From Balanoglossus misakiensis (Eukaryota; Animalia; Hemichordata), in contig CM082589.2 of NCBI GenBank assembly GCA_040954595.2, positions 5,515,186 to 5,579,185 of the forward strand: a stretch of DNA of 64,000 nt, read 5' to 3'. This document shows positions 1 to 60,318 of this stretch, piece by piece (within the stretch, counting starts at the first letter, position 1; every line of letters starts with the position of its first letter). The notes beneath the pieces were generated by a model that was given only the letters and a program-made list of their open reading frames with translations, ran no database searches and was not told the origin of the DNA. The position numbers and the translations under genes were made by a program.

Positions 1-3000
1 ACATTTCACATACTTTTAGAATTTCGTGAAGAATTAGTTGATTATCCCGCCTAACTCGTTGCTTTTTTCTGTCTCCCTTTGTCTCTGCCTCTGTCTCACT
101 ATCCCCCTTTCAACTCGACGATTTTTACCATAATGGACTTCTAACAGAAAATCGTAAGTCATGCCATTTGATTTCAATTGTTTTCCATATTTAAACTCCA
201 ACACGAGCTTTGTATATAATATGGTCTATGATGTAACTGGGATAGATCATTTCACATACTTTTAGAATTTTGTGTCGAATTATAGTTGATTATCCCGTCT
301 AACTCGTTGCTTTTCTCTGTCTCCCTATGTCTCTGCCTCTGTCTCACCGTCCCCCTTTCAACTCGGCGATTTTTTTTACCATAATGGACTTCTAACAGGA
401 ATTGGTAAGTCATGCCATTTGATTTCAATTGTTTACCATATTTAAACTCCAACACGGGCTTTGTATATAATATGGTCTATGATGTAACTGGGATAGAACA
501 TTTCACATACTTTTAGAATTTCGTGAAGAATTAGATGATTATCCCGTCTAACTCGTTGCTTTTCTCTGTCTCCCTATGTCTCTGCCTCTGTCTCACCGTC
601 CCCCTTTCAACTCGGCGATTTTTTTTACCATAATGGACTTCTAACAGGAATTGGTAAGTCATGCCATTTGATTTCAATTGTTTACCATATTTAAACTCCA
701 ACACGAGCTTTGTATATAATATGGTCTATGATGTAACTGGGATAGAACATTTCACATACTTTTAGAATTTCGTAAAGAATTAGTTGATTATCCCGTCTAA
801 CTCGTTGCTTTTCTCTGTCTCCCTATGTCTCTGCCTCTGTCTCACCGTCCCCCTTTCAACTCGGCGATTTTTACCATAATGGACTTCTAACAGACATCTG
901 TAAGTCATGCCATTTGATTTTCAATTGTTTGCCATATTTAAACTCCAACACGGGCTTTGTATATAATATGGTCTATGATGTAACTGGGATAGAACATTTC
1001 ACATACTTTTAGAATTTCGTGAAGAATTAGTTGATTATCCCGTCTAACTCGTTGCTTTTCTCTGTCTCCCTATGTCTCTGCCTCTGTCTCACCGTCCCCC
1101 TTTCAACTCGGGGATTTTTACTATAATGGACTTCTAACAGCCATATGTAAGTCATGCCATTTGATTTCTATTGTTTGCCATATTTAAACTCCAACACGGG
1201 CTTTGTATATAATATGGTCTATGATGTAACTGGGATAGAACATTTCACATACTTTTAGAATTTCGTGAAGAATTAGATGATTATCCCGTCTAACTCGTTG
1301 CTTTTCTCTGTCTCCCTATGTCTCTGCCTCTGTCTGACCGTCCCCCTTTCAACTCGGCGATTTTTACCATTATGGACTTCTAAACAGGAACATGTAAGTC
1401 ATGCCATTTGATTTCAATTGTTTGCCATATTTAAACTCCAACACGGGCTTTGTATATAATATGGTCTATGATGTAACTGGGATAGAACATTTCACATACT
1501 TTTAGAATTTCGTAAAGAATTAGTTGATTATCCCGTCTAACTCGTTGTTTTTCTCTGTCTCCCTATGTCTCTGCCTCTGTCTCACCGTCCCCCTTTCAAC
1601 TCGGCGATTTTTACTATAATGGACTTCTAACAGCCATATGTAAGTCATGCCATTTGATTTCTATTGTTTGCCATATTTAAACTCCAACACGGGCTTTGTA
1701 TATAATATGGTCTATATGTAACTGGGATAGAACATTTCACATACTTTTAGAATTTCGTGAAGAATTAGTTGATTATCCCGTCTAACTCGTTGCTTTTCTC
1801 TGTCTCCCTATGTCTCTGCCTCTGTCTCACCGTCCCCCTTTCAACTCGGCGATTTTTACTATAATGGACTTCTAACAGCCATATGTAAGTCATGCCATTT
1901 GATTTCTATTGTTTGCCATATTTAAACTCCAACACGAGCTTTGTATATAATATGGTCTATGATGTAACTGGGATAGAACATTTCACATACTTTTAGAATT
2001 TCGTAAAGAATTAGTTGATTATCCCGCCTAACTCGCTGCTTTTCTCTGTCTCCCTATGTCTCTGCCTTTGTCTCACCGTTCCCCTTTCAACTCGGCGATT
2101 TTTACCATAATGGACTTCTAACAGGCACGGGTAAGTCATGCCATTTGATTTCAATTGTTTGCCATATTTAAACTCCAACACGGGCTTTGTATATAATATG
2201 GTCTATGATGTATTAAACTGGGATAGAACATTTCACATACTTTTAGAATTTCGTGAAGAATTAGTTGATTATCCCGCCTAACTCGTTGCTTTTCTCTGTC
2301 TCCCTATGTCTCTGCCTCTGTCTTACCGTTCCCCTTTCAACTCTGCGATTTTTACTATAATGGACTCTAAACAGGAAGTTGTAAGTCATGCCATTTGATT
2401 TCAATTGTTTGCCATATTTAAACTCCAACACGGGCTTTGTATATAATATGGTCTATGATGTATTAAACTGGGATAGACCATTTCACATACTTTTAGAATT
2501 TCGTGAAGAATTAGTTGATTATACCGTCTAACTCGCTGCTTTTCTCTGTCTCCCTATGTCTCTGCCTCTGTCTCACCGTCCCCCTTTCAACTCGGCGATT
2601 TTTACCATAATGGACTTCTAAACAGGAATTGGTAAGTCATGCCATTTAATTTCAATTGTTTGCCATATTTAAACTCCAACACGAGCTTTGTATATAATAT
2701 GGTCTATGATGTGACTGGGATAGACCATTTCACATACTTTTAGAATTTCGTGAAGAATTAGTTGATTATACCGTCTAACTCGCTGCTTTTCTCTGTCTCC
2801 CTATGTCTCTGCCTCTGTCTCACCGTCCCCCTTTCAACTCGGCGATTTTTACCATAATGGACTTCTAAACAGGAATTGGTAAGTCATGCCATTTAATTTC
2901 AATTGTTTGCCATATTTAAACTCCAACACGAGCTTTGTATATAATATGGTCTATGATGTATTAAACTGGGATAGAACATTTCACATACTTTTAGAATTTC

Positions 3001-3940
3001 GTAAAGAATTAGTTGATTATCCCGCCTAACTCGTTGCTTTTCTCTGTCTCCCTATGTCTCTGCCTCTGTCTCACCGTCCCCCTTTCAACTCGGCGATTTT
3101 TACCATAATGGACTTCTAACAGGCACGGGTAAGTCATGCCATTTGATTTCAATTGTTTGCCATATTTAAACTCCAACACGGGCTTTGTATATAATATGGT
3201 CTATGATGTATTAAACTGGGATAGAACATTTCACATACTTTTAGAATTTCGTGAAGAATTAGTTGATTATCCCGTCTAACTCGCTGCTTTTCTCTGTCTC
3301 CCTATGTCTCTGCCTCTGTCTTACCGTTCCCCTTTCAACTCTGCGATTTTTACTATAATGGACTCTAAACAGGAAGTTGTAAGTCATGCCATTTGATTTC
3401 AATTGTTTGCCATATTTAAACTCCAACACGGACTTTGTATATAATATGGTCTATGATGTATTAAACTGGGATAGAACATTTCACATACTTTTAGAATTTC
3501 GTAAAGAATTAGTTGATTATCCCGTCTAACTCGTTGCTTTTCTCTGTCTCCCTATGTCTCTGCCTCTGTCTCACCGTCCCCCTTTCAACTCGACGATTTT
3601 TACCATAATGGACTTCTAAACAGGAACGTGTAAGTCATGCCATGTAATTTCAATTGTTTGCCATATTAAAACTCCAACACGAGCTTTGTATATAATATGG
3701 TCTATGATGTAACTGGGATAGAACATTTCACATACTTTTAGAATTTCGTGAAGAATTAGTTGATTATCCCGCCTAACTCGTTGCTTTTCTCTGTCTCCCT
3801 ATGTCTCTGCTTCTGTCTCACCGTCCCCCTTTCAACTCGACGATTTTTACCATAATGGACTTCTAAACAGAAATGGGTAAGTCATGCCATTTGATTTCAA
3901 TTGTTTGCCATATTTAAACTCCAACACGGGCTTTGTATGT
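1..3940 (+). repeat. Tandem array of a ~245-251 bp unit (16 near-identical copies, continues beyond the left edge), plus a diverged 17th unit at ~3970-4170
   Basis: Unit acatttcacatacttttagaatttcg...gggatagaa recurs at ~247-bp spacing. Variation is concentrated in a 6-nt site between cag and gtaagt. Confidence 0.97.
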
Positions 3941-4159
3941 AGCCTTAGATAACACTTGCTAAAGTGTTAAAATATTTCACATATTTGTTGACTTCCGTGA
4001 AGAATTAGTTTTGCACCGTTTCTAACTTGTCGCATCTCTGTCTCTGTCTCTCTCTCTCTCTCTGTCTCTCTCTCTTTCTCTCTCTCTCTCGCTTCCATCC
4101 TCGCTCAACCCATCGATTTTTACCATTATGGAATCAATATGGAATTCGAATAGTCGGAT
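148..4159 (+). CDS. Array of 17 putative 6-nt phase-0 microexons of the ZU5/death-domain gene
   Basis: 148-153 AAAATC(KI), 399-404 GAATTG(EL), 648-653 GAATTG(EL), 894-899 ACATCT(TS), 1141-1146 CCATAT(PY), 1388-1393 GAACAT(EH), 1634-1639 CCATAT(PY), 1879-1884 CCATAT(PY), 2125-2130 GCACGG(AR), 2375-2380 GAAGTT(EV), 2626-2631 GAATTG(EL), 2873-2878 GAATTG(EL), 3123-3128 GCACGG(AR), 3373-3378 GAAGTT(EV), 3624-3629 GAACGT(ER), 3871-3876 AAATGG(KW), 4154-4159 TCGGAT(SD). Each is flanked by YAG and GTAAGT, with an upstream CTAAC, a pyrimidine tract and an AG-free zone. Confidence 0.7.
4037..4090 (+). repeat. (TC)n microsatellite replacing the pyrimidine tract of the last array unit
   Basis: tctgtctctgtctctctctctc... 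directly visible. Confidence 0.9.
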
Positions 4160-4554
4160 GTAAGTCATACCACCATTTGATAATATTCTTTCAACTCCCG
4201 TGTCGTCTTTTAAGCCATTAAATTTATGATGACACTAGCGTATGCACTTTCACATATTTGTAGATGTAAACAATTAGTTGTTGTTTTTCCCTTCCGTATT
4301 GTTTTACCAATGCGAATTTATATCGTATTACCATATAAGATCTTCTTGACAAGATGTTATAGGTGTTTAAATGTTATCAAATAAATGAAATGGCATAGTA
4401 TGGCTTACCACTGACTCCTATTGCTATAATGATGATGACAGACAGACGGACAGAAATTAATGGATGTAGACACAAGGAGGTCACAATGCATAGAGGGGAA
4501 ATTAAATATAGTTTAGACGACAGCGAGAAATTAATTGTCCATCTTTTCTTTTAG

Positions 4555-7500
4555 TTGTTTCCGACGGTGCATAATACGGAAATACCAACAGGGATACAAG
4601 CGCAACAATTTGATTCAGAAGGTGGAATACTTAAGGATGCAAAATCGGGAGTAGAAGTCGTCATACCCAAAGGAGCAATACCTCAAGGAAGATTTCAGTT
4701 AATAACGTTAAAAATTTACAATGATCGTAGTTCCTATTCGGGTGTAAAATTTAAGAAACATGAGACCATTATGACGCCTGTTGTCGAGTGCTTGTCGCCC
4801 GGGTTGATACGGTTTCGCAAACCAGTTACTGTGAAGATACCAATATCAACGCCAGGTTACGAGCACATGCGTTACAAGCTGCTCTACAATGAATCTGAGA
4901 ATTTCACAGAAGATTGCGACAAGCAATGGAAGTGTGTTACCACAAAAGGGGGACACTTGGATTCCAAACGAGATGTCAATTTTGAAGTTGGCGAAAAACA
5001 TGTTACCATAAAAACGTTCCATTTCACCCGCTTTGTCTGTTCGGGTTGCAAAGAGAGCAAAGACCTGAACATGGAAGCAGTGGCCACCGGAAAGTATCTG
5101 GATCCAAACACCGTTTCTGTTCGTGTATACATTGGCAATGCTAGTGAAGACAGCAGAAAGAAACTCAACGAGAGAGAGCATGGCAATGCCCGTTCAGACA
5201 TAGTTCGGCTTCGAGTTGAAGACACAAGCAGAGACTGGATAGTACAGTGCGTTGGTGATACAAGGTCAACCAGCGAAGACTGGGAGTGGAAGCTGGAAAG
5301 TCCGTTAGATCCCCAGGTTTGTTAACTCTATTTCTACCATAGAACTTCTTAAATGATCTCATCAATCTTCTTTGGGAGAATCCATTTCAGATGCCAATAC
5401 TCTGTGTCTCACTGAAATGAGTCGCAAGCTCTACAGTATGTAAGTTGTTAAAGTTATACACCGTAATGTGTAGCCGATGGAATATTACTTGACAAGTGGA
5501 GAACAAATAGTATGATTTTAATGCTGCAATCGCACAGTTTGCTATATCACAAACATTATTATGTCTTAATATGTCTAATAAAATAATTCAGAGTATGATG
5601 CCGAACTGTCGTTTTTTGTTCATGGGTAGTTTTGTTTAAGTTAATATGTAATTTCTTATTTTACTTTTGCTGAATACTGAAAACACAAATATGTTATCTT
5701 TCTATCTTAAATTCAGATCATCCAAAGTGACGGAGACGACTGGTGTTGTGGAGATGGTTTGGCAGCATCAAAGGAGTTCATTTTTAAATCAAAAGAAACA
5801 ACTCCGACACCATACAACTGCTCATTTATTATACGCCAGTCAGAGCAAGAAACGAACAAAGGAAATGTGTTGTCCATTTACATGGCTGGTGTTGAGGTAG
5901 AGACATAGATTAATTTCTTTCACTAGTAAACAACGTCGATTCCGTGTTATAACCCATCTTTAAACCAGTGAAATATATGTTTCAGATGCACAATTGATGG
6001 ATTTAGCTCACCGCCAAAAACAAGTACACAGTGTCAGAAATAATCAGACAACAGAATTTCTTTCAGAATACTGGAGCACGTGGAGGGAATGCAAAACCGA
6101 GTCATAATAAGGTGACCTGTGCTGGTGAACTGAGTTCACCATCGAAGATTCCACGCCTGAATGGCATCAGTGATGTCAAAGAGATGGTAAAGTTGGCAAA
6201 CGATTGTGTACCAGATTCAATTCCGCCGGTCATAGAAGAGCATCCAAGACCAATCAAGGAAAGCAATACCAAACCTACTGGTCCTCTTACTAATGGTAAT
6301 CTGAAGACCACCGCAAGATATAGTTCCAAGACAGGAAAGGCGGGAAATGGCGCAGGCTATATTTCCAAAGCAGAATACGCACCGTCTTCAAGTAGGATTC
6401 TCACAACTGTCATTGACATCTACAGTATATCGTTCAGTGATACATTTGACTACTGTGGAGGAAAATTGCAACATCCTGAGTCAGATGTAAGCCTTACAAT
6501 TCCAGAAGGAGCAATACCAAAGGGTGTCACTCAGCTGATCGAGGTACAAGTTGGTCTTTATCCAGAACGTTTCAATCTCAAATCTGATGATATGGCAGGC
6601 AAGCACTACATGTCCCCAGTCGTCAACTGTGTCGCACCAGGCCTGACTCGATTTGAGAAACCAGTCCTGCTGAGCCTTCCTCACCGGGCACAACTGAAAG
6701 ATTCCAACTGGGCGTTTACTGTGCACGTCTCCGAACATGCCTCGGTTGAGAATGTGGTCTGGGAAGATGTGAACAGTGCAGATGAGAACGATGACGTCAC
6801 GTTTCAGGTGTGCGATGGATATGTGGAAGTCAGCCTCATGCATTTCACGTTAGTTACCTGCACAGCACACCCAAGAGAAATCTCATACATCAGATTACAG
6901 TCGGTCGCTTTTGGTAACTACATCAAACCATATAAGAAGCAGCTGGTGGCCATCAAGGTATACGTATGTGACACAATCAAAGACTACAACAAGCTGGTTG
7001 AAGAAAATGAACGAGCTTCCACTAAGTCAGATGTCATACTGATGTCAATACCCATAAAGGAACCCGTAAAGATTTCCTGTAAGGGCGACACAAGACGTGA
7101 TCCTGATGAGTGGGAGTGGCAACTGAATACTAACAGAGACTTGTTGCCCAAAACGCAGGTAAGCCATCATACATCAATTATACTAGTAAAATACCTTTAT
7201 CTATTTTACTGAAATGAAATTGGCAATATTTGAGAATGAAAATCTGTCCCGCTGAGTGACTTAATTCTTAATTAGCTTAGCGTTTACAGTAAAACCGCCA
7301 GGCATGTGTACTTTCACGGCAACCCTTACAAGCGGTAACATCATTCAACCATATATTAGTAGAATTTTTAGGTCTATTTTGGTGAAATATTGCATGCCTT
7401 ACGGTACAAAATATGTTGAATACAATCCCATCCTCCGTATTCTCTTTGTCCAAACTTTTAGGTCATCCATCCGCATCAGTTCGTCACCTGTCACTGTTCT

Positions 7501-8469
7501 CCAGCTGTTGCACCACATTGCCGCTTCGAGTTTGAACCAAAGGTAGACAAGCAGACACTGGACAACATTTATGTCACGTTCGGTATATGCTCAGAGAGAA
7601 ATGACACCGAGGACATTTTGTCCTTCCACTTTCCCGTGAACGAGGTGAGAAACAACGGATATTAAGACTTTCTGTATTTGTACTGACCAGATTTATGAGA
7701 GATTTCCTCAATTACAATGAAGGCATCGGATGGTCTGTTTATCGAAACCTCTTACTAGTTAGGATTCCTGTTGAGAGATGTTGGTAATTTCAGGTGTGGG
7801 AATGCCCAGCTGCACAACTTCTATAGCACTATGTAAACGAGTTGTTGGGTAAAACATACAATTCACGGCTCACCATTAATAATTCTTTACAGGAAACAGT
7901 GATTATGCCAAGCAAAATTGATCCAAAGGACTCAAGCGGTGAGTACTGAGTGAATATATTTTTTTATCTGCATAGGAATGTTCTTACTAGCGATACCGAT
8001 GACATCGTGAACATTTCGTTCTCACATTATGTCATATGAAAATAAGAAAAAAATATGAATAGTTTCATTTTGCCATACTTTCAATCGACGCACATTTTGG
8101 TTTTATTGAGTACACTTGCTAAATTATTATTACTCAACCATAAAACATGATATTAGAGAATGAACAATATCGCATCTTCCAGCAGTGTGCACAATAGATG
8201 ATCTGGGGCGTTTGGCAAGGATTTTGGAAGAGGGTGCTACAAAATCGGTTGTACGGAAGCTGCTGCAAGAAATGGTCAACGTAGACGCTGAAATTCAAGC
8301 AGTAGAGGGTGACAACTCAGCAGCCGGTACACAAGAAAAGAAGTACAAGTTACTCGATCTGTGGAAGATCAAAAAAGGGCAAGAAGCTACTCGGTCGAAA
8401 TTACTGCAAGCTCTCGAGGATTGCGGCTTCAAAGCCGCGGCGGATCAGTGGAAAGAGTCGACTGGTTGA
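4555..8469 (+). CDS. ZU5-UPA-like x2 plus C-terminal death domain protein (UNC5/PIDD/FIIND-like architecture), 5' end outside the window
   Basis: Exons 4555-5316, 5717-5896, ~6007-7158, 7462-7644, 7893-7938, 8183(or 8186)-8469 with GT-AG boundaries in compatible phases. ZU5 signatures FDSEGGIL..SGVEVVIPKGAIPQG..MTPVVEC..FRKPV and FDYCGGKL..DVSLTIPEGAIPKG..MSPVVNC..FEKPV. Death domain IQAVEGDN..QEKKYKLLDLWK..GQEATRSKLLQALEDCG. The acceptor of exon 3 is uncertain. Confidence 0.85.
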
Positions 8470-9944
8470 AAAGAAATCTCCGACTGAGGTAGTTTGAATA
8501 ATTTGTAATTGATCAGTGAAAAACTCTGTGTGTCTGTATTATTTCATTATTTGAATCAATGAGAATTGTATTTTTCCAACAAAAACACCCTGAAGAGGTA
8601 AAAGCAGGTCCTCTTTAAATTACACATACTGAATACTTATTTTCTGACACTCCTTGGATATAAATCAAATTATTCTGTCAGTATGGTTGGAGATATTGAC
8701 AATCAAACTATACTCCTGAGCCTCCAAATTTTACTTTTACCATCTCATTGTGTCACGAGTATTTTCAAGATAATGATTGCAGTTACTTGTATGTTTCTTG
8801 GCACTAGCAAGCCAAGTTTTATAAGTAATTTTTGGATAGCAGTTAAGAGTTTTTGTCATATTACGTTATTAGCTAAATGCAAGACAAGGAGTCTTGCAGT
8901 TTTAAAAATCACTGATAGTTCTCATCGTATCGTCAGGGGAGCCCTCGAATGTTGATCTGTCATTTGAAGTTTTATTAACAGATAAGGTTATAACACAGCA
9001 TAGAAATTTTGGTTTGTTTGTTTTCTTTAATCAATCGTTGATTCATCACCACCAATACAAGTCTACCAATAATATCCCGCACATTAAATGGGAAGGGAAC
9101 ATATATTACCCAGACAAGATAATTTATAGTTCAGATAATGACTGTCTTAGTTTATATTATGTAATGTTATAGACTCATTTCAAAGCAGACAGAATATTTA
9201 CTTAATGATCTCGAATAATTTGCTGTCTGAACCAGTATGACAGCACACTTGTAATATTTTTAAAGAGGTAGCTTCCACTAATGAACGATACATTTACATA
9301 ATTCTGTATTTACCCAGCGAATAGGTTTATAGTGGAGAGGCGAGTATCCAAATTGAGAGTGACGTCTGACTAATTATAAACATTTTGAAATTATAATGGG
9401 GTCAGAGCTGAGAATATAAACTACAGTCTTTCACAGAGTTACATAATAATCTGCAGTTGATAAATTATTAAATGTTTTTTTGCTCTGGTTCAAGAGTCGC
9501 GGAGCTACAAATTTCCACAACCTGATAGATTTTGTTTGTGTATGACAGGTTCATAATCGTACCATAAATAGTTGCACTAATACATACAAAAAGTAACAAG
9601 TTATGAGAAGATTTCATGATTGTAGATTTGACAATGACTATTCTTTTTCATGTTACTGAATTTTAACAATGGTATATAAGGTATAGACTTTAGTTTCTCT
9701 GTATTTTGAAGTATTCAAATTGTGACAAGGATGCTAGTTGATCAGTTTTTAATTTTAAGTGGATAATTTTGACATTGGATGAGGTGGGAACTTGTCACCT
9801 GTCAGATCTCCCTGGAACACAAAACTAAGATTTTGCTCCATGTTCTGTTCAAAGAATTATAACACTATGACATGTTGTTTTGAAATCGCTCAAGAATATT
9901 AACCAGTTCCCGAAACCAATCACTAAAATGCAGCAAAAAAGACT

Positions 9945-21600: not shown

Positions 21601-22170
21601 TGAAAAGCTGACAAGAGAGTGGTAGACAGAAAGAAAATGTTAGAGTACCCCTTAACGAGAGAATAATTATAGTGTTCTAGGGGAGGGCCTCTGGATTGAC
21701 GATCCCCAAGTCAAAATTCAATGTGTGTGTCCAGATGGCAAATTACTGAACACAGATGGAATCATAACATTCAGTCGTATATGATGTTGTTAGAATTCTG
21801 GCTGCTTTAAATAAATAGGTTTTTACATCGTGCTAAGGGGTCAAAACCGTCAAATCACACAATAATAAAAATGTTGCAGGGAGAAGAATAAGAAACAGTA
21901 GTGTATTCACCGAACATTGTCCCTTTAACTTGGAAATGCTACCCACTTACCTTGTATTGCACCATAAGTCACCCTGAGTAAAACCATAAAAGTTAACTGT
22001 GATGCTTTGTCTTGGTAGAGGTACGTGAGATACGGCGTGAGGATTGTGAGCAGTCCCCATGCGATGGCCGCCAGTGTTACGATGAAGTCTCCGCCGTATT
22101 TATCGCTGATGTATCCAGACAGGAATTGTGTCAGTGCGTAGCCCCAGAAGAAAGACGACAGCACTAGTCC

Positions 22171-30119: not shown

Positions 30120-33100
30120 TTAGTAATCAAACACCACTTGTTCTCCAGATCCGAAGACCACGTACACCAGCCATCCCAGAAGATGAATGGCGGCCATCAA
30201 ACTGAAGACGATGCTCCAACTGTTGAAGTACTCCAGGATGTGGCCACTGAGATAGACGCCGAGAAATCCGGGTATTGCACCGCACGTATTCATTACACCT
30301 GGTCAGTAAAACAATATTCATATTCTAAAGTTCATAGGTCAAATATGCGGTATATTATACATGGCCAGTTGCAAAGGCAAACACAAAACGATATAGAACA
30401 GCACGTGTGCAGACAATCAACAAAAAACAAAGAAACAAGTTAGGTCTGTGAAAGAAAGATAAATGGACCTCTGGCAAAAAGAACCAGGAAGTCCGCTGTT
30501 TTTCGAAAATAGTTTCCACATCCTGCCCCACTTGTGACCCCCACCATATATCAATCTCTAAGAAAATAAGTTGTTAAGACTTCTTCATGAGGACATTTTT
30601 TACTTCAAATTCAAAGAGAGGAAACTTACCATAAACTGCGCCAGCGTGTTCTGGAACCAAGTCTTGCGGATTTGCATACGATCCCGCCGACCCAAAACCA
30701 CCGATCATTAGTGAAAATGTCACAATGAACAAAGCTGTCGTGTAGCAATGGGTATGTCCAACCAGGAAAAAAGCGGTTATTTGCGATAATGAGTGTACTG
30801 TCTGAAACAGAAATTGTTCAAAATTTTCTTAGATTAATATTTTCAAGCGATATCAAGCTGCAACATAAAGCTGTATTTCCCATTCTTAAACATGGCAAAA
30901 ATCGGCCATCTTGAAATTGTGTCGACCATATGAGATACTTACTTGTAAAAATTTTCTCGTTATCGTTATACTTATGCCGTGTTTGATAAGTCTATCAGCA
31001 ACATAACCACTAATGAAATTTGTTATCAACAGGAACAGCCAGGGCAGTACGTTGTAAACCCAACCCTGGAAAAAAATGCAAACATGCGGATGGTAAGTTA
31101 GAATAAAATGAAATGCCCCTGCAGCAGAGCTGGTGTTGCACATGAATTGACCAAGTATTGGATGCCAGTTTTCAGTGATACTAGTAGATTCCCAAATACA
31201 GCAACAAATTTACATTAAAGCCCCATGAGCTGCAAATTTTTAACATGTTTGTCAGTTTGTCTCACAATGTGTGTTCCAATATGGCCTCCAGCCTTAACAA
31301 TTTGGGAAATTATCTTGGAATCTATTTTCAAACTGTACTAATATTAGACCATACAGATGTACCGGTATGCACTGGAGTATATAAAAGTATCATAAATATT
31401 CAATATGAGCACATGTAGAAGAGTTTAACATTTTAGTATAATATTTAGTTGGAGTTAGCACTTACCTTTTCGTTTGGATAATTTTCTTCAAAGAATGTTG
31501 GCAGCCACGATAGTGTTAAATGCCATGAATATGAGGTACAGATATACATAAAGATCATCGCCCTAAAGAAATAATTATATGTAAACATATTCACTAGTGG
31601 CAGTTGCACATATTCAATGATGTTGTCAAAATGTGGATATCCTCTATACCGCAAGGTTTGTCTTATAATGGATGACTGCACGCAACTTGGAGTGGTGTGG
31701 GGGGAAAAACTGGAGTGTGCTTACCAAAAACCCCTATGTCTCGCTAAGGTTGTCCATATAGTCTTGGTTGTTGGCAAAGTAGTAAGTGCTCTAGTTTTGA
31801 TCCTAGTACATGGATGTAGACACCTCTTTTTCATGAGGAATACCCGCACTACAATTGCAGAAACGGTTGCCAAGGCGCCAAAGACGTAGTAAATGATATG
31901 CCAGCCATTAGTTGCGAGAAGGTAGGATCCCAAACTCCCAGAAAGTACATTCCTTAAATGTGGGCAAAAAATAGCATTAATAAGTTCATGATGATGATAT
32001 ATTTTCCATTCTGACAATAAAAACATGAAAAACACAGGATTTTGGTTTAACGGAAGCTCTGTTGTGCTGGAGGATGCCGACATGAAGTGACTGGATATAT
32101 TTTCCTGGAATGATATGATACCCAATGTTGTTGTTTACCCAGCCACGGTTCCGGATCCAACAGCCGTGTAGAAGAAGGATCTGTTCTCCATTACCACTCT
32201 GGAGGCAGCTATACTCGATATCGTTGGATAATGGAAACCTGCGTAGATAGGAAATATTAGTAATCATCATTCTCTCGCATTGTCAAAAATCACATTCACC
32301 CAGAATCAATGGTATTCATGCTTATTTTAAATACTACATTAACGAAACTTATCGTACAGCTGTAATAAAATACATAGAATCACGTTTGGAAAGTTAAGAC
32401 GGTTTGCCTGTTATATTCATTGAAAATATTCAGAAAAAAATAAATTGGTTGGTCACATGTTCACCTGAGCTTGTACTATTATTGTGGTACGGACAAATTT
32501 GATTGGAAGCTCTTTTCTGAAGTGTGGCACCCATTTAATATACCAAGACACAATTTTGAAATTTACAAATAGAGCTGTACTACCTACCTGTCACAATGCC
32601 AAAAATAATCCTGTTTATTACAAGGAAGGTGAGCTGCGACGATTTGTCATCAAATGCATACGCACAGAAGGGATACACAATTGTTAAGGGGCCCCAGACA
32701 AGTGTTGCTATGGTAACCACTTGGTCACCCCCGAAGCGGTCGCTCAGGAAACCGGACAGAATTGTTGTAGTGACGTAGCCCCAGTAGAAACTGGACAAGA
32801 TGAGACCCTGGAAGTAATTTGAGAGTTTACACTTTATAACATTCTGATGTAAATATGGACAGTATTTATATTTCATAAATAACCAGATTAGTTATAATTG
32901 TTTGTGCAACCCATCAGTCTGCTCTGAAAATAAAATCATGAAAATAATGCGAAAAATAGCAGCTACCAGAAATATGACAATATTTTACCGTTTCCGACTT
33001 GTCCCAGTCGAACTCCTTGGACATAGCAACAGCACTTAAAGGCATGCAGTTTCGACAAGCGTATGTTAACATTGTCAAGGTGAAAAATGCTGTTGCCCAT

Positions 33101-34595: not shown

Positions 34596-35697
34596 ATGTC
34601 GGACACACTAGAAATGGACGAATTCAGTGAAGAAATGGCTTCGGCGACCACGAAATTGACAAGAGACGATGTGTCAGTGGCAGCTGTAAACTACCACCAC
34701 GATCAAGGTCATTTGAGCAAGTACTGTATGTTCACCAAACTTCCATGTCAAGCAGATCTGACAAATCATAATGTAGGTCATACCCCAATCTGATTAAAAT
34801 CAGATGTATAGGAAACGGTGTACGTATGCAAGGGTGGTGTTGTGGTTTCTAATATAGACTATTGTTCTTTCAACAGGAAGGGATCAATAATATGGGCAAT
34901 AGCACTGTTCACACTAACATCTTTGACATATGCATGTCGAAACTGTATGCCATTAAGCGCCGTCGCCATGTCAACGGAGTTCGGCTGGGACAAAACTGAA
35001 ACGGTGAGGATGGGGTCTATCGTCAATACCAATGCAAGAAAGTGCTGTATACCAATAATTTTATACAAATCGTTCTTTAATATTTGAAAAGTAAGAAATG
35101 GCCTTGATTTGTATACATTTCAATATTCCCAACTATGGGTCTTTATGGCAAACTCTCAAAGAAGGAACCTTTACCCATAAATATAAATATCCTAACAAAA
35201 GTTGTTTATGGGGTTAGTTGCAAATGCAATATTTCAAAGATAGTGGTATTACATTTGCAGGGTCTTGTGTTATCGAGCTACTTTTGGGGATACGTGCTGA
35301 CACAAATGCCCTCGGGTTTTCTAAGTGACCGCATCGGTGGTGACCAGGTGATTACCATAGCAACACTTGTGTGGGGCCCTCTGACGATTATTTATCCGTT
35401 CTGTGCGTATGCGTTTGAAGACAAGTCATCACAGCTAACGTTTCTCGTTATGAACAGAATTGTCTTCGGGATGGCGACAGGTATGTGGTGGCTATCAATC
35501 CCCTTTTCTGTGTGATTGCAATTCACCTCTCCAATTTATATTGATCTGATACAACCGCCAAATATTGAAAATAACAAGTGGTCTTTCTCTGAAATGTGCG
35601 ATTTTTGTGGGTTATTAATGACTAAAATTCTGTACCTACATGTAATGTATACCAGTGATCATACCTGTGCGATATGTGTAGCCAAACCAAGAATACA

Positions 35698-44014: not shown

Positions 44015-44912
44015 AAAAAAACACTTAGAAATTTTTCAGGCTTTACTCTATACTTATTAAAAACACTTAGAAATTTTTCAGGCTTCACTCTATACTTATT
44101 AAAAACACTTAGAAATTTTTCAGGCTTCACTCTATACTTTAACATTAAAAAAATACTTAGAAATTTTTCAGGCTTTACTCTATACTTTGATATTAAAAAC
44201 ACTTAGAAATTTTTCAGGCTTCACTCTATACTTTAACATAAAAAAAAATACTTAGAAATTTTTCAGGCTTTACTCTATACTTTGATATTAAAAAAATACT
44301 TAGACATTTTTCAGGCTTTACTCTATACTTTGATATTAAAAACACTTAGAAATTTTTCAGGCTTCACTCTATACTTTAACATAAAAAAAATACTTAGAAA
44401 TTTTTCAGGCTTTACTCTATACTTTGATATTAAAAACACTTAGAAATTTTTCAGGCTTCACTCTATACTTTAACATTAAAAAAATACTTAGAAATTTTTC
44501 AGGCTTTACTCTATACTTTCACATTAGGAAAATACTTAGAAATTTTTCAGGCGTTTACTCTACACTTTCACATGAGGAAAATACTTAGAAATTTTTCAGG
44601 CTTTACTCTATACTTTGATATTAAAAACACTTAGAAATTTTTCAGGCGTTTACTCTACACTTTCACATTAGGAAAATACTTCGAAATTTTTAAGGCGTTT
44701 ACTCTACACTTTCACATGAGGAAAATACTTAGAAATTTTTCAGGCTTCACTCTATACTTTAACATAAAAAAAAATACTTAGAAATTTTTCAGGCTTTACT
44801 CTATACTTTGACATTAAAAACACTTAGAAATTTTTCAGGCGTTTACTCAATACTTTCACATTAGGAAAATACTTAGAAATTTTTCAGGCGTTTACTCTAC
44901 ACTTTCACATTA
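44015..44912. repeat. Minisatellite, ~42-50 bp unit (cttagaaatttttcaggctttactctatacttt), ~19 copies; related short array at ~47220-47440
   Basis: Directly visible periodicity. Confidence 0.93.
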
Positions 44913-45103
44913 GCGAAATAAAGGGAGTGTGTGTGTCAAATTGAGATTGATTGGGTCTTACCTTAAGCAGTACTCTTGGATTCTTCAAACCATCGTCTGG
45001 GCATTGAGAAGATTTCACCTTGACTTTAACTCACTGCAATGCAAAGAACAAAATCAGGGTAAGTTTAACAACAATATTAATTACACAAAAAGACTGATAA
45101 CAG

Positions 45104-46547
45104 TCAAGAATTTGACAATTTCCATGAGCTATAACCCATGAAAAGTGTCCCAGAATGACAACATCACCAAAGTTTGCAAAGTCGAGAATTTGTCATTTTG
45201 TGACATTTTCATGAGCTATAACCAATGAAAAATGTCCCAGAATGACAAAATCACCAAAGTTTGTAAAGTGGAGAATTTGTCATCTCTTGACAATTTCCAT
45301 GAGCTATAGCCCATGAAAAGTGTCCCAAAATGACAACATCACCAAAGTTTGCAAAGTCGAGAATTTGTCATCTCTTGACAATTTTCATGAGCTATAGCCC
45401 ATGAAAAGTGTCCCAGAATGACAACATCACCAAAGTTTGCAAAGTCGAGAATTTGTCATCTCTTGACAATTTTCATGAGCTATAGCCCATGAAAAGTGTC
45501 CCAGAATGACAACATCACCAAAGTTTGCAAAGTCGAGAATTTGTCATCTCTTGACAATTTCCATGAGCTATAACCCATGAAAAGTGTCCCAGAATGACAA
45601 CATCACCAAAGTTTGCAAAGTAGAGAATTTGTCATCTCTTGACAATTTCCATGAGCTATAACCCATGAAAAGTGTCCTAGAATGACAACATCACCAAAGT
45701 TTGCAAAGTCGAGAATTTGTCATCTCTTGACAATTTCCATGAGCTATAGCCCATGAAAAGTGTCCCAGAATGACAACATCACCAAAGTTTGTAAAGTCGA
45801 GAATTTGTCATCTCTTGACAATTTCCATGAGCTATAGCCTATGAAAAGTGTCCCAGAATGACAAAATCACCAAAGTTTGCAAAGTCGAGAATTTGTCATC
45901 TCTTGACAATTTCCATGAGCTATAGCCCATGAAAAGTGTCCCAGAATGACAAAATCACCAAAGTTTGCAAAGTCGAGAATTTGTCATCTCTTGACAATTT
46001 CCATGAGCTATAGCCCATGAAAAGTGTCCCAGAATGACAAAATCACCAAAGTTTGCAAAGTCGAGAATTTGTCATCTCTTGACAATTTCCATGAGCTATA
46101 GCCCATGAAAAGTGTCCCAGAATGACAAAATCACCAAAGTTTGCAAAGTCGTGAATTTGTCATCTCTTGACAATTTTCATGAGCTATAGCCCATGAAAAG
46201 TGTCCCAGAATGACAAAATCACAAAAGTTTTCAAAGTCGTGAATTTGTCATCTCTTGACAATTTCCATGAGCTATAGCCCATGAAAAGTGTCCCAGAATG
46301 ACAAAATCACCAAAGTTTGCAAAGTCGAGAATTTGTCATCTCTTGACAATTTCCATGAGCTATAGCCCATGAAAAGTGTCCCAGAATGACAAAATCACCA
46401 AAGTTTGCAAAGTCGAGAATTTGTCATCTCTTGACAATTTCCATGCGCTATAGCCCATGAAAAGTGTCCCAGAATGACAAAATCACCAAAGTTTGCAAAG
46501 TCGAGAATTTGTCATCTCTTGACAATTTCCATGAGCTATAGCCCATA
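45104..46547. repeat. Minisatellite, 88-bp unit, ~16 copies, with internal palindromes
   Basis: gaatttgtcatctcttgacaatttccatgagctatagcccatgaaaagtgtcccagaatgacaa..caccaaagtttgcaaagtcga with period 88 (45361, 45449, 45537). Confidence 0.95.
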
Positions 46548-46556
46548 TAGCAGGGG

Positions 46557-47593
46557 TTTATTAGACTCTTCTTGAAAGTTTGGTGGGGATAGTAAGGGTG
46601 GGGGTTTGGGACTTAGTTTTTTTTTTTAAAGTATAAAAACACTAAAAATTTGAAATTTGTCTATACCCCCTCGTTGGGGCATACACAAGTTTCAAAAATT
46701 TTCTAATTTAGAAACTTAGACAATTTTTGAAAAGAGTTCCCCTTTACTAAGTTTTAAGTTTTATAAAAAAATTAGAAATTTTTTGAAAAGAGTGCCCCTT
46801 TACTTAGTTTTCTAAGTAAAGGGGAACCCTTTTCAAAAATTTTAAACATGATTAAGTTTTCTAAGTAAAGGCTTCTAGGTGAAGTGTTCCCCTTTACTTA
46901 GAAAACTTAATCATGTTTCTAATTCCCCCATGATTAAGTTTTCTAAGTAAAGGGGAACACTTTACCTAGAACCCTTAACTTAGAAAACTTAATCATGTTT
47001 CTAATTCCCCCCTATACTTATACTTACACCTTGTTTTTTCAGATCATCCATCCATCCGGACTCCACTTCTTTCGATTGGTCATCAACCATTCAACAGATA
47101 GACCTGAAACAACAAGTGAATACAAGTTCAATTCAACACTGGTTTTGTCACAATTTTATAGAAATAAAATAAAATAAAAATAAAGTGCAATCTTTAGTGT
47201 GTCTGTTTTTTTAAAAAAAACTTAGATTAGGAAAAACTTAGAAAATTTTTCACGATTGACTCTATACTTGCATTCATAAAAAAACTTAGAAAAGTTTTCA
47301 GGACTGACTCTATACTTGCATTCATAAAAAAAAACTTAGACAATTTTTCACGATTGACTCTATACTTAGATTAGGAAAAACTAAGAAAATTTTTCAGGAC
47401 TGACTCTATACTTACATTGGGAAAAAACTTAGACAAATTTACCTGAACAGCACTCTTGGATTCTATGGAGTATTGGTTGAGCATTGGGTGGATTTCACTT
47501 TGAGTAAACTCACTGCAATGCAAAAAATAAAATAAAATTAGGGTGAGTTTAACAACATCAGCAATTAATTAAACAAAATGACTGACTACGGTC
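46557..47593. repeat. Diverged direct copy of block 43609-45104, with additional short inverted repeats at 46844-47001
   Basis: Shared aaatttgaaatttgtctatacc, ggactccacttctttcgattggtcatcaaccattcaacagatagacctgaaac and aactcactgcaatgcaaa in the same order. Confidence 0.8.
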
Positions 47594-48787: not shown

Positions 48788-59715
<10,928 letters not shown>

Positions 59716-60318
59716 GATCTGGGAAGAAAACAGAAAATATCCAAAAATGTTATTTTCTCTAAAATCAGTATTGTTTGCTATTGCACATAACAAAATGTTC
59801 ATCTTTGACCAAAATTTGATCCTCGTTAAATTTTTAGTGGTGGTTACCCTATGACTGTTTTTAAACAATAATCCATAAAGTTCTCATCTTTAATATTTGA
59901 TGTACATTTGTGATTGTGTAATTTTACTATAGGATATTTGGTTTTATTTTCTACATTCACTGCGTAGTAAAACTTTATTGTATTTTTAGTACATGTCATC
60001 AAAGCCAGTCCAGTTTTCTCTGTCTTTGATGACCCTGGGCGATGAAACACGAAACTGAAATCCACCTACGTATGTGCGTGGTGTTTTCGTTCTGTTTCAA
60101 GGCACGTGCACATTTGTGCGTACCGTAAATGCTTGACGTAAATGCTACCAGAATCACTTCGCCGTCAACAAACTAGAAAGCTTGAGTGTGTCTAGAGGTC
60201 AAGGTTAGAAAATACTCTGGGGGACCCAGCTAACGTTTAAATACTGTAAAACATGTTATTTTCGCGAGTTGAAATCTCCTGTAATCGAATCCATGGGAAG
60301 TCGGTGCACAGCATAGGT

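Follow-up and report, generated by a model that had tools for sequence, protein, structure and literature searches.

A 64,000-nt stretch of the genome of the hemichordate Balanoglossus misakiensis (GenBank assembly GCA_040954595.2, contig CM082589.2, positions 5,515,186 to 5,579,185 of the forward strand; termed the window below and numbered from its first base) contains a gene for a predicted protein with two ZU5-UPA modules and a death domain, preceded by a tandem array of candidate 6-nt microexons (Table 1). Six GT-AG exons, predicted from splice sites and reading frame on the plus strand (4555–8469), join to 848 codons without an internal stop. Exon A follows the best acceptor found between 4160 and 4700 (16 of 18 pyrimidines, phase 0), exon F has an alternative acceptor 3 nt upstream, and exon E was included because it is required to reach the frame of the death domain. 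Since no methionine precedes the first ZU5 domain (ZU5-1) within exon A, the coding sequence is predicted to begin upstream. The linker at the start of exon C comprises 122 residues and is rich in Ser, Gly, Lys, Pro and Thr. The possibility of two separate genes was ruled out, as just 170 nt lie between exons B and C. Read-through at the exon B donor would lead to a stop at 5908 and to a form without the death domain. Phase-0 introns flank exons A and B, the microexons, and exon C alike, so that skipping of module 1 as a cassette could produce a receptor with the usual single module.

Table 1. Predicted features of the Balanoglossus misakiensis locus (window coordinates)
Feature	Position	Strand	Evidence
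Repeats of ~247 bp in tandem, each with a candidate intron and a candidate 6-nt phase-0 exon; array continues beyond the left edge of the window	1..3938	+	Tandem Repeats Finder (TRF), splice signals
17th, diverged candidate microexon (SD)	4154..4159	+	splice signals retained; AG-free zone of 145 nt
Exon A: short linker, ZU5-1 (about 4591–5058), N-terminal part of UPA-1	4555..5316	+	Pfam ZU5, E 1.1e-15
Ile97, replacing the ZU5 Pro-His histidine (UNC5b His624, CARD8 His252)	4843..4845	+	alignment, PMC3210808
His-Phe-Thr site 1, predicted autoproteolysis between Phe and Thr (residues 156–158 of the partial protein)	5020..5028	+	motif, structural alignment
Exon B: C-terminal part of UPA-1	5717..5896	+	UPA profile; weak donor GTAGAG
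Exon C: linker, ZU5-2 (about 6430–6882), N-terminal part of UPA-2	6067..7158	+	Pfam ZU5, E 4.7e-17
His-Phe-Thr site 2, predicted autoproteolysis between Phe and Thr (residues 573–575)	6841..6849	+	motif, conservation
Exon D: C-terminal part of UPA-2	7462..7644	+	UPA profile, splice sites
Exon E: linker exon of 46 nt (phase 0 to 1)	7893..7938	+	splice sites, reading frame (inferred)
Exon F: death domain (about 8209–8451) and stop	8186..8469	+	Pfam Death, E 4.6e-11
Polyadenylation-signal-like hexamer, first after the stop	9083..9088	+	pattern only

Pfam was scanned with single exons, covering all except exon E. The Death match on exon F reached 43.1 bits, as compared to 15.3 bits for CARD_2, and no match to UPA or FIIND was obtained at E ≤ 1 in these five exons. 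The UPA-like segments following both His-Phe-Thr motifs were recognized by hhalign against an alignment of nine UNC5-type UPA domains (probabilities 95.9 and 92.8, E 6.4e-9 and 4e-7, 120 columns each), and a UPA profile of the family described below spans residues 170–301 of the model in module 1 (E 1.1e-20, one comparison). A UPA hidden Markov model built from UNC5 alone did not detect the UPA segments of the window directly (best E 0.018). Modules 1 and 2 are 32% identical over the large exons A and C and are interrupted by an intron at the same position; exons B and D gave no alignment with each other by BLASTP, their homology resting on the family profile. The predicted order is ZU5-UPA-ZU5-UPA-death domain, as a preliminary description of this locus had proposed. 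The order had been contrasted with those of PIDD/ankyrin and UNC5; it does differ from that of PIDD1 in having a UPA between the ZU5 domains, but among the 150 matches listed (see below) a Branchiostoma lanceolatum protein (P0063) also has two ZU5-UPA modules (≥55% coverage), without the motif, and is the only other one.

An AlphaFold model of exon A (predicted local distance difference test score, pLDDT, 83.6) matches UNC5b with Z 12.0 (root-mean-square deviation, rmsd, 2.2; 144 residues) and the ZU5 of rat NLRP1 (7crv_A) with Z 7.6; because UPA spans two exons and the model includes just part of UPA-1, this fold search bears on ZU5 only. The closest relative, Glandiceps XP_077994808 (P0001), was therefore folded as a proxy (pLDDT 78). 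Its model matches UNC5b with Z 24.3 (rmsd 2.6, 283 residues), the rat NLRP1 FIIND with Z 18.4 (rmsd 3.4, 259 residues), and isolated NLRP1 UPA chains with Z 10.2 and 9.0 (residues 262–416 and 262–411), and the family profile aligns with residues 5–283 of the UNC5b chain 3g5b in a single stretch over ZU5 and UPA (E 1.7e-22). The UPA fold expected behind both motifs is thus borne out by profile and proxy model. The designation “FIIND-like” is correct as a description of the modelled fold, but does not extend to membership among the FIIND proteins of the NLRP1/CARD8 type, considering the His-Phe-Thr motif, the death domain, and the lack of a Pfam FIIND match.

The two His-Phe-Thr motifs lie exactly at the positions first described. 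They had been taken to mark the ends of the ZU5 domains; in the exon-A model, site 1 is indeed near the end and at the position of autoproteolysis, but it is located between the last two ZU5 strands, and one further strand (residues 159–166) follows before UPA. Alignments of this model to the NLRP1 ZU5 chain and to six GAIN chains stop at residue 157, the Phe of the motif. Each of these chains terminates at its own cleavage site. In the profile alignment, the motif Phe stands opposite Leu677 of UNC5b (3g5b chain offset 540, fixed via Cys663/Cys670, Val619 and His624), a residue which has been equated with CARD8 Phe296 at the scissile bond (PMC3210808). Among the module matches of at least 120 bits (36 rows, 3 of them without site coverage; 12 of these proteins seeded the profile), HF[S/T] is found in 28 of the 33 that cover the site, with Thr in 19 and Ser in 9; weaker module matches retain it in 20 of 32 and 22 of 33 cases. 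UNC5 proteins have Gln-Leu-Gly at this position. Threonine acts as nucleophile in GAIN and MAIN domains (10.64898/2026.05.12.724683), and Ser, Cys and Thr nucleophiles occur in this autoproteolytic class generally (PMC9162469).

The histidine of the ZU5 Pro-His pair is kept in module 2 and replaced by Ile in module 1. In CARD8, the one protein for which such a requirement has been demonstrated, His252 is needed for autoprocessing (PMC3210808). The histidine is also absent from 5 of 41 more distant rows with HF[S/T]. Of 32 strongly conserved positions, module 1 keeps 28 and module 2 keeps 29, so both modules look functional. Self-cleavage is predicted to be likely, since the motif coincides structurally with known autoproteolysis sites and 28 of 33 close relatives retain it. 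Attack of Thr on the Phe-Thr bond is very probable for site 2, as judged from structure and conservation, and reasonably probable for site 1, which is less sure because the conserved histidine is missing.

HMMER searches with both modules against 1.84 billion representative sequences yielded 409 matches at E ≤ 0.001, of which the best 150 were examined. The best ones (top matches E 1.7e-64 to 1e-30) are from Glandiceps, Saccoglossus and Ptychodera, followed by Lingula, echinoderms, amphioxus, Owenia and corals (names available for 30 of the 150), and most relatives are labelled as uncharacterized or UNC5-like. Module 2 together with the death domain is 38% identical to Glandiceps P0001 over 438 residues, the value for module 1 being 31% over 297 residues and that for exon C by tblastn 42%; the first two of these alignments back the gene model by homology. 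In a tree of 38 module matches with at least 80% coverage (UNC5CL not among the labelled rows), both modules of the window group with P0001 and Saccoglossus P0002 (support 98/92), whereas UNC5 orthologues form a separate clade (100/100); modules 1 and 2 sit on long branches and do not pair as sisters. An UNC5 or ankyrin orthologue is ruled out by the tree and the motif, which agrees with the preliminary description.

In word-indexed searches, whose negatives are weak, exon A had no match among longer proteins, and the family alignment recovered six ankyrins only among proteins of 1582–4515 residues and three already known proteins only among those of 124–1581 residues; 113 pattern matches in metagenome contigs gave no confirmed member. 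ZU5 modules have been noted in expanded invertebrate defence proteins (PMC8195603, PMC3482391). An Apostichopus NACHT protein contains three ZU5 and two death domains, and a Rel-homology (NF-kB-type) domain is fused to ZU5-UPA-death domain in the gene models P0061, P0079, P0094 and P0116, with His-Phe-Thr in at least one of them. Eight Ptychodera flava models (P0003, P0011, P0014, P0022, P0023, P0028, P0031 and P0038), apparently on one contig, suggest a gene cluster; in three of them the ZU5 domains are 95–96% identical and the juxtamembrane linkers have diverged.

Upstream of ZU5, 21 of the 36 top relatives have a hydrophobic helix, among them all 17 whose N-terminal part before ZU5 is 200 residues or longer; a linker of 62–283 residues separates the helix from ZU5. 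TNFR_c6 was found in 5 of 35 top relatives scanned, in some below the Pfam cut-off, and also in the long Saccoglossus model P0151. These sequences point to a family ranging from corals to amphioxus and made up mostly of predicted single-pass receptors with a signal peptide, a TNFR cysteine repeat or stalk, a helix, and ZU5-UPA-death domain. By comparison with them, the gene of the window is quite probably preceded upstream by a signal peptide, a TNFR cysteine repeat or stalk and one membrane helix, the microexon-encoded segment being cytoplasmic. No membrane helix is present between the array and ZU5-1; the microexon dipeptides would therefore belong to the cytoplasmic linker if the protein is a receptor. 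Along the lines of the preliminary description, the protein would instead be a cytosolic CARD8-like sensor without membrane anchor, in which a microexon-built N-terminal bait precedes two FIIND-like modules. The 848 residues do lack a membrane helix, as do 15 of the 36 top relatives, the two closest included; the fold matches the NLRP1 FIIND, and many cytosolic domains, among them Rel-homology, NACHT and SH2, occur as fusion partners of ZU5-UPA-death modules. However, the stretch before ZU5 is at most 179 residues in all 15 helix-less relatives, which appear to be truncated models, as opposed to the 17 with long N-termini, all of which have a helix, and both modules group with the Glandiceps and Saccoglossus proteins, the long Saccoglossus model having a signal peptide and a TNFR repeat. 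We consider a cytosolic sensor distinctly improbable.

Upstream of exon A, directly N-terminal of the first ZU5 as described before, the array comprises 16 units in addition to the diverged one (TRF: period 247, 15.9 copies, 95% matches). Candidate 6-nt exons start at 148, 399, 648, 894, 1141, 1388, 1634, 1879, 2125, 2375, 2626, 2873, 3123, 3373, 3624 and 3871. Each unit presents AG, six bases and GTAAGT, behind an AG-free zone of 110–113 nt with a branch-point-like CTAAC 97 nt before the acceptor and a 61-nt tract of 82% pyrimidine; outside the array, just 8 of 3362 AG-to-AG gaps reach 110 nt. The sixteen units carry nine alleles, encoding the dipeptides KI, EL, TS, PY, EH, AR, EV, ER and KW. 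CAG-N6-GTAAGT is found 17 times in the window, as compared to 0.37 expected, but since 16 of these occurrences are copies of one unit, the telling figure is the location of the variation and not the motif count. The six bases have a diversity of 0.51, as opposed to 0.043 for the remaining 240 columns, the best other six-column window reaching 0.14, and parsimony places 17–24 changes in the 6 sites versus 48–49 in 185 flanking sites, a 10.7–15.4-fold excess. Non-coding satellites of 49, 88 and 48 bp are located at 44015–47440 of the window, and two of them served as controls: the best six-column window of the 88-bp satellite is 0.11 versus 0.51, without such a hot spot, and that of the 49-bp satellite (18 units) is 0.30, at ragged unit ends.

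The length is exactly 6 nt in all 17 candidate microexons, and none of the 136 ordered pairs contains a stop in phase 0, which is also the phase of exon A's best acceptor. Phases 1 and 2 were rejected in view of stops in 40 and 6 of the 136 pairs, respectively, and of weaker acceptors. Another discarded explanation, that the six bases are target-site duplications of an inserted element, is at odds with adjacent hexamers, which mostly differ. For the nine alleles, the proportions of synonymous and nonsynonymous differences (pS and pN) are 0 and 0.47 in codon 1 and 0.52 and 0.81 in codon 2. Joining any two exons in order would give 56 different four-residue sequences, joining neighbours 14. The array thus combines the sequence hallmarks of a microexon array, i.e., symmetric tiny exons, splice signals and accelerated coding change, and the simplest reading is that of two-codon exons under diversifying selection within introns homogenised by unequal crossover or conversion. 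That the candidate microexons are spliced in, probably variably, is rather probable. Their last three bases, which pair with U1 small nuclear RNA, vary among the alleles (148–3876), so that inclusion levels may differ. The units at 2125/2375 are repeated as a block at 3123/3373, and a degenerate 18th repeat copy which has lost the six-base pattern occupies 4230–4480 in the last intron before exon A.

Tandem repeats of this kind might also be an intronic satellite which arose from a single small exon together with flanking sequence; the six-base pieces would then not, or no longer, be spliced in, and the gene would be an ordinary family member with a duplicated ZU5-UPA. The candidate microexons are predictions from sequence, the array is 95% uniform with block duplications typical of satellites, the degenerate 18th unit before exon A lacks the six-base pattern, and exons of 6 nt are often skipped. 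Against this alternative, variation is confined to the six bases between an invariant AG and GTAAGT, and their length is constant; an AG-free zone of at least 110 nt and a pyrimidine tract precede each microexon; the diverged 17th unit retains all splice signals; and the 88-bp control satellite has no similar pattern. We regard an unspliced satellite as improbable.

Taken together, we propose a membrane-anchored death receptor with two self-cutting ZU5-UPA modules, in which a variable, microexon-built linker acts as trigger or bait, and assign this reading a probability of roughly 40%. In this model, Thr would attack the Phe-Thr bond once a module has folded, and the cut pieces would stay assembled because the last ZU5 strand remains inserted. 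ZU5 would keep the death domain closed, as in UNC5b; restraint of the death domain by ZU5 has been described for UNC5-type modules (PMC10084454). Two cuts would yield, in a PIDD1-like manner, a C fragment of about 77 kDa and a CC fragment (UPA-death domain) of about 31 kDa, and the microexon dipeptides would build the cytoplasmic linker N-terminal to the first ZU5. Tentatively, pathogen enzymes might cut or tag this linker, with the result that ZU5-1 is degraded and the death-domain fragments leave the membrane to engage FADD-, RIPK- or IRAK-type adaptors and NF-kB or caspase signalling, a step about which we are doubtful. Precedents for its parts are the degradation-triggered release of NLRP1B (10.1101/317834) and the spliced bait-region variants of tick alpha-2-macroglobulin (PMC5438962). 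A bolder version appears unlikely: dozens of positively selected two-codon exons, variably included, would give every transcript its own cytoplasmic linker and form a protease-bait library in which any pathogen cut leads to two-stage autoproteolytic release of UPA-death domain, amounting to an NLRP1-style tripwire on a TNF-receptor scaffold.

The linker need not be the trigger. In a ligand-activated, self-cleaving TNF-receptor-like death receptor, real microexons could diversify to escape silencing enzymes or binders, or to tune linker length or partners, and a cut in the linker would silence the receptor. The TNFR cysteine repeats or stalks of the relatives suggest a ligand outside the cell, diversifying selection would look identical under evasion and baiting, and UNC5CL is a membrane-anchored autoproteolytic ZU5-UPA-death domain protein with no known bait (PMC10084454). 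The strict retention of HF[S/T], on the other hand, implies that release of the tail matters, and many dipeptides create more cleavable junctions, which fits a bait better than an escape segment. We judge the ligand-driven alternative somewhat unlikely.

Several points weigh against the proposed trigger or bait linker. A single cut in the linker would remove ZU5-1 only, leaving ZU5-2 on the UPA-death domain piece and the death domain covered, as the ligand-driven alternative would have it, and the selection signal would be no different if the linker had evolved to evade pathogen enzymes. Either evasion or relaxed constraint would likewise make a linker evolve fast, as may be seen in the Ptychodera paralogues, whose linkers are identical in 59–70% of aligned residues, with large gaps, next to ZU5 domains that are 95–96% identical. 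The high pS of codon 2 is a further caution, as is the invariant third base, which could reflect a splicing constraint, and the array units are not independent, so that binomial p-values (1.6e-11 and 1.6e-18) overstate the certainty. With regard to the gene model, the exon junctions and microexons are predictions from sequence, the predicted donors of exons A (GTTTGT) and B (GTAGAG) are weak, and the N-terminal part of the gene lies beyond the left edge of the window. As to the membrane anchor, the P0001 model begins just after a short hydrophobic stretch and has no clear membrane helix, and Saccoglossus P0151 has a signal peptide and cysteine repeat, with no helix detected. As to self-cleavage, the Pro-His histidine which module 1 lacks is present in all 31 top relatives covering both columns, and the coral members examined have Thr-Phe-Ser instead of His-Phe-Ser.

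Judged by analogy, the protein is like UNC5CL and PIDD1 in its predicted chemistry, and possibly like NLRP1/CARD8 in its logic. UNC5CL cleaves itself between Phe and Ser of His-Phe-Ser. Like the protein proposed here, UNC5CL (ZUD) consists of a membrane helix followed by ZU5-UPA-death domain, with autoproteolysis preserved (PMC10084454), but vertebrate UNC5CL has one module and no ectodomain, whereas the relatives of the present protein have a TNFR repeat or stalk and the gene itself two modules and a microexon array. PIDD1 has two His-Phe-nucleophile sites and gives rise to two C-terminal fragments (PIDD1-C and PIDD1-CC) ending in UPA-death domain (PMC9162469), as predicted here; it differs in being a cytosolic protein with the order leucine-rich repeats-ZU5-ZU5-UPA-death domain and Ser as nucleophile, in contrast to ZU5-UPA-ZU5-UPA-death domain, Thr, and receptor relatives. 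With NLRP1 and CARD8, the protein shares the ZU5-UPA fold (Z 18.4 for the proxy model), the position of cleavage, a variable segment N-terminal of ZU5 and a terminal death-fold domain. These proteins differ, however, by Ser-Phe-Ser with cleavage before the second Ser, a CARD and one module, as opposed to His-Phe-Thr, a death domain, no Pfam FIIND match and 11–12% identity; activation by degradation has been demonstrated for NLRP1B only (10.1101/317834). In the Atlas, FIIND clusters rank below ZU5/UPA clusters (0.92 vs 0.96). NLRP1/CARD8, the model adopted in the preliminary description, holds for the fold, but with mostly single-pass receptor relatives, some with TNFR repeats, UNC5CL and PIDD1 are the nearer models. 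UNC5A-D provide the best structural match for the tail (Z 24.3) but differ in their ectodomain (Ig and TSP1), in the Gln-Leu-Gly that replaces the motif, in the lack of autoproteolysis, and in forming a clade of their own (100/100).

The TNFR-ZU5-death receptor architecture is already on record as domain hits, since Table S1 of PMC4979521 lists ten cysteine-rich domain (CRD)-containing proteins of Acropora digitifera with ZU5, and two of these that were checked also have a death domain. The list gives domain hits only, and ZU5 is absent from the main text of PMC4979521. Relatives from Stylophora and Montipora likewise combine TNFR_c6 with ZU5; unlike the protein of the window, the coral members examined have Thr-Phe-Ser and a single module. 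The main texts of three papers on invertebrate TNFR or apoptosis (10.1101/2024.07.27.603686, 10.1101/2021.12.26.474206, PMC11463336) do not mention UNC5 or ZU5, and the literature, judged mostly by titles and the beginnings of abstracts, contained nothing on autoproteolysis in this family or on a death receptor with an array of this kind. For the array, comparable features are the tiny symmetric exons and high dN/dS (ratio of nonsynonymous to synonymous substitution rates) of Schistosoma micro-exon genes (MEGs; PMC4350168), the codon-sized microexons of NACHT-ANK genes, i.e., immune-type genes, of Tuber melanosporum and the near-identical repeats with few positively selected positions of Podospora WD-repeat NLRs (both PMC4986451, PMC10197012), and the spliced bait variants of tick alpha-2-macroglobulin (PMC5438962). 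Going by these sources, no animal death receptor is among them, and the pairing of an autoproteolytic ZU5-UPA module with two-codon exons in a homogenised intron array is found in none.

Elsewhere in the window, exons of at least 2–3 major-facilitator transporter genes are distributed over both strands between 18845 and 35512, with MFS_1 matches at 21928–22170 (minus), 31724–32134 (minus) and 35108–35512 (plus); we take these transporters to be SLC17-like. An exon at 59527–59880 (minus) codes for part of an Arf-family GTPase (E 0.0018), presumably ARFRP1-like.

Protease tripwires of the NLRP1/CARD8 type are known from vertebrates, where the bait changes by slow substitution alone. If the linker of the Balanoglossus protein is variably spliced and the receptor is fired by cutting it, protease sensing could be broadened within one individual in an invertebrate deuterostome. 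With its six selected bases amid homogenised introns, the array itself is an unusually clean selection signature. Even without a bait, the locus points to a widespread TNF-receptor-like family with a probably self-cleaving ZU5-UPA-death domain tail, which extends from corals to amphioxus and is mislabelled as UNC5 in databases.

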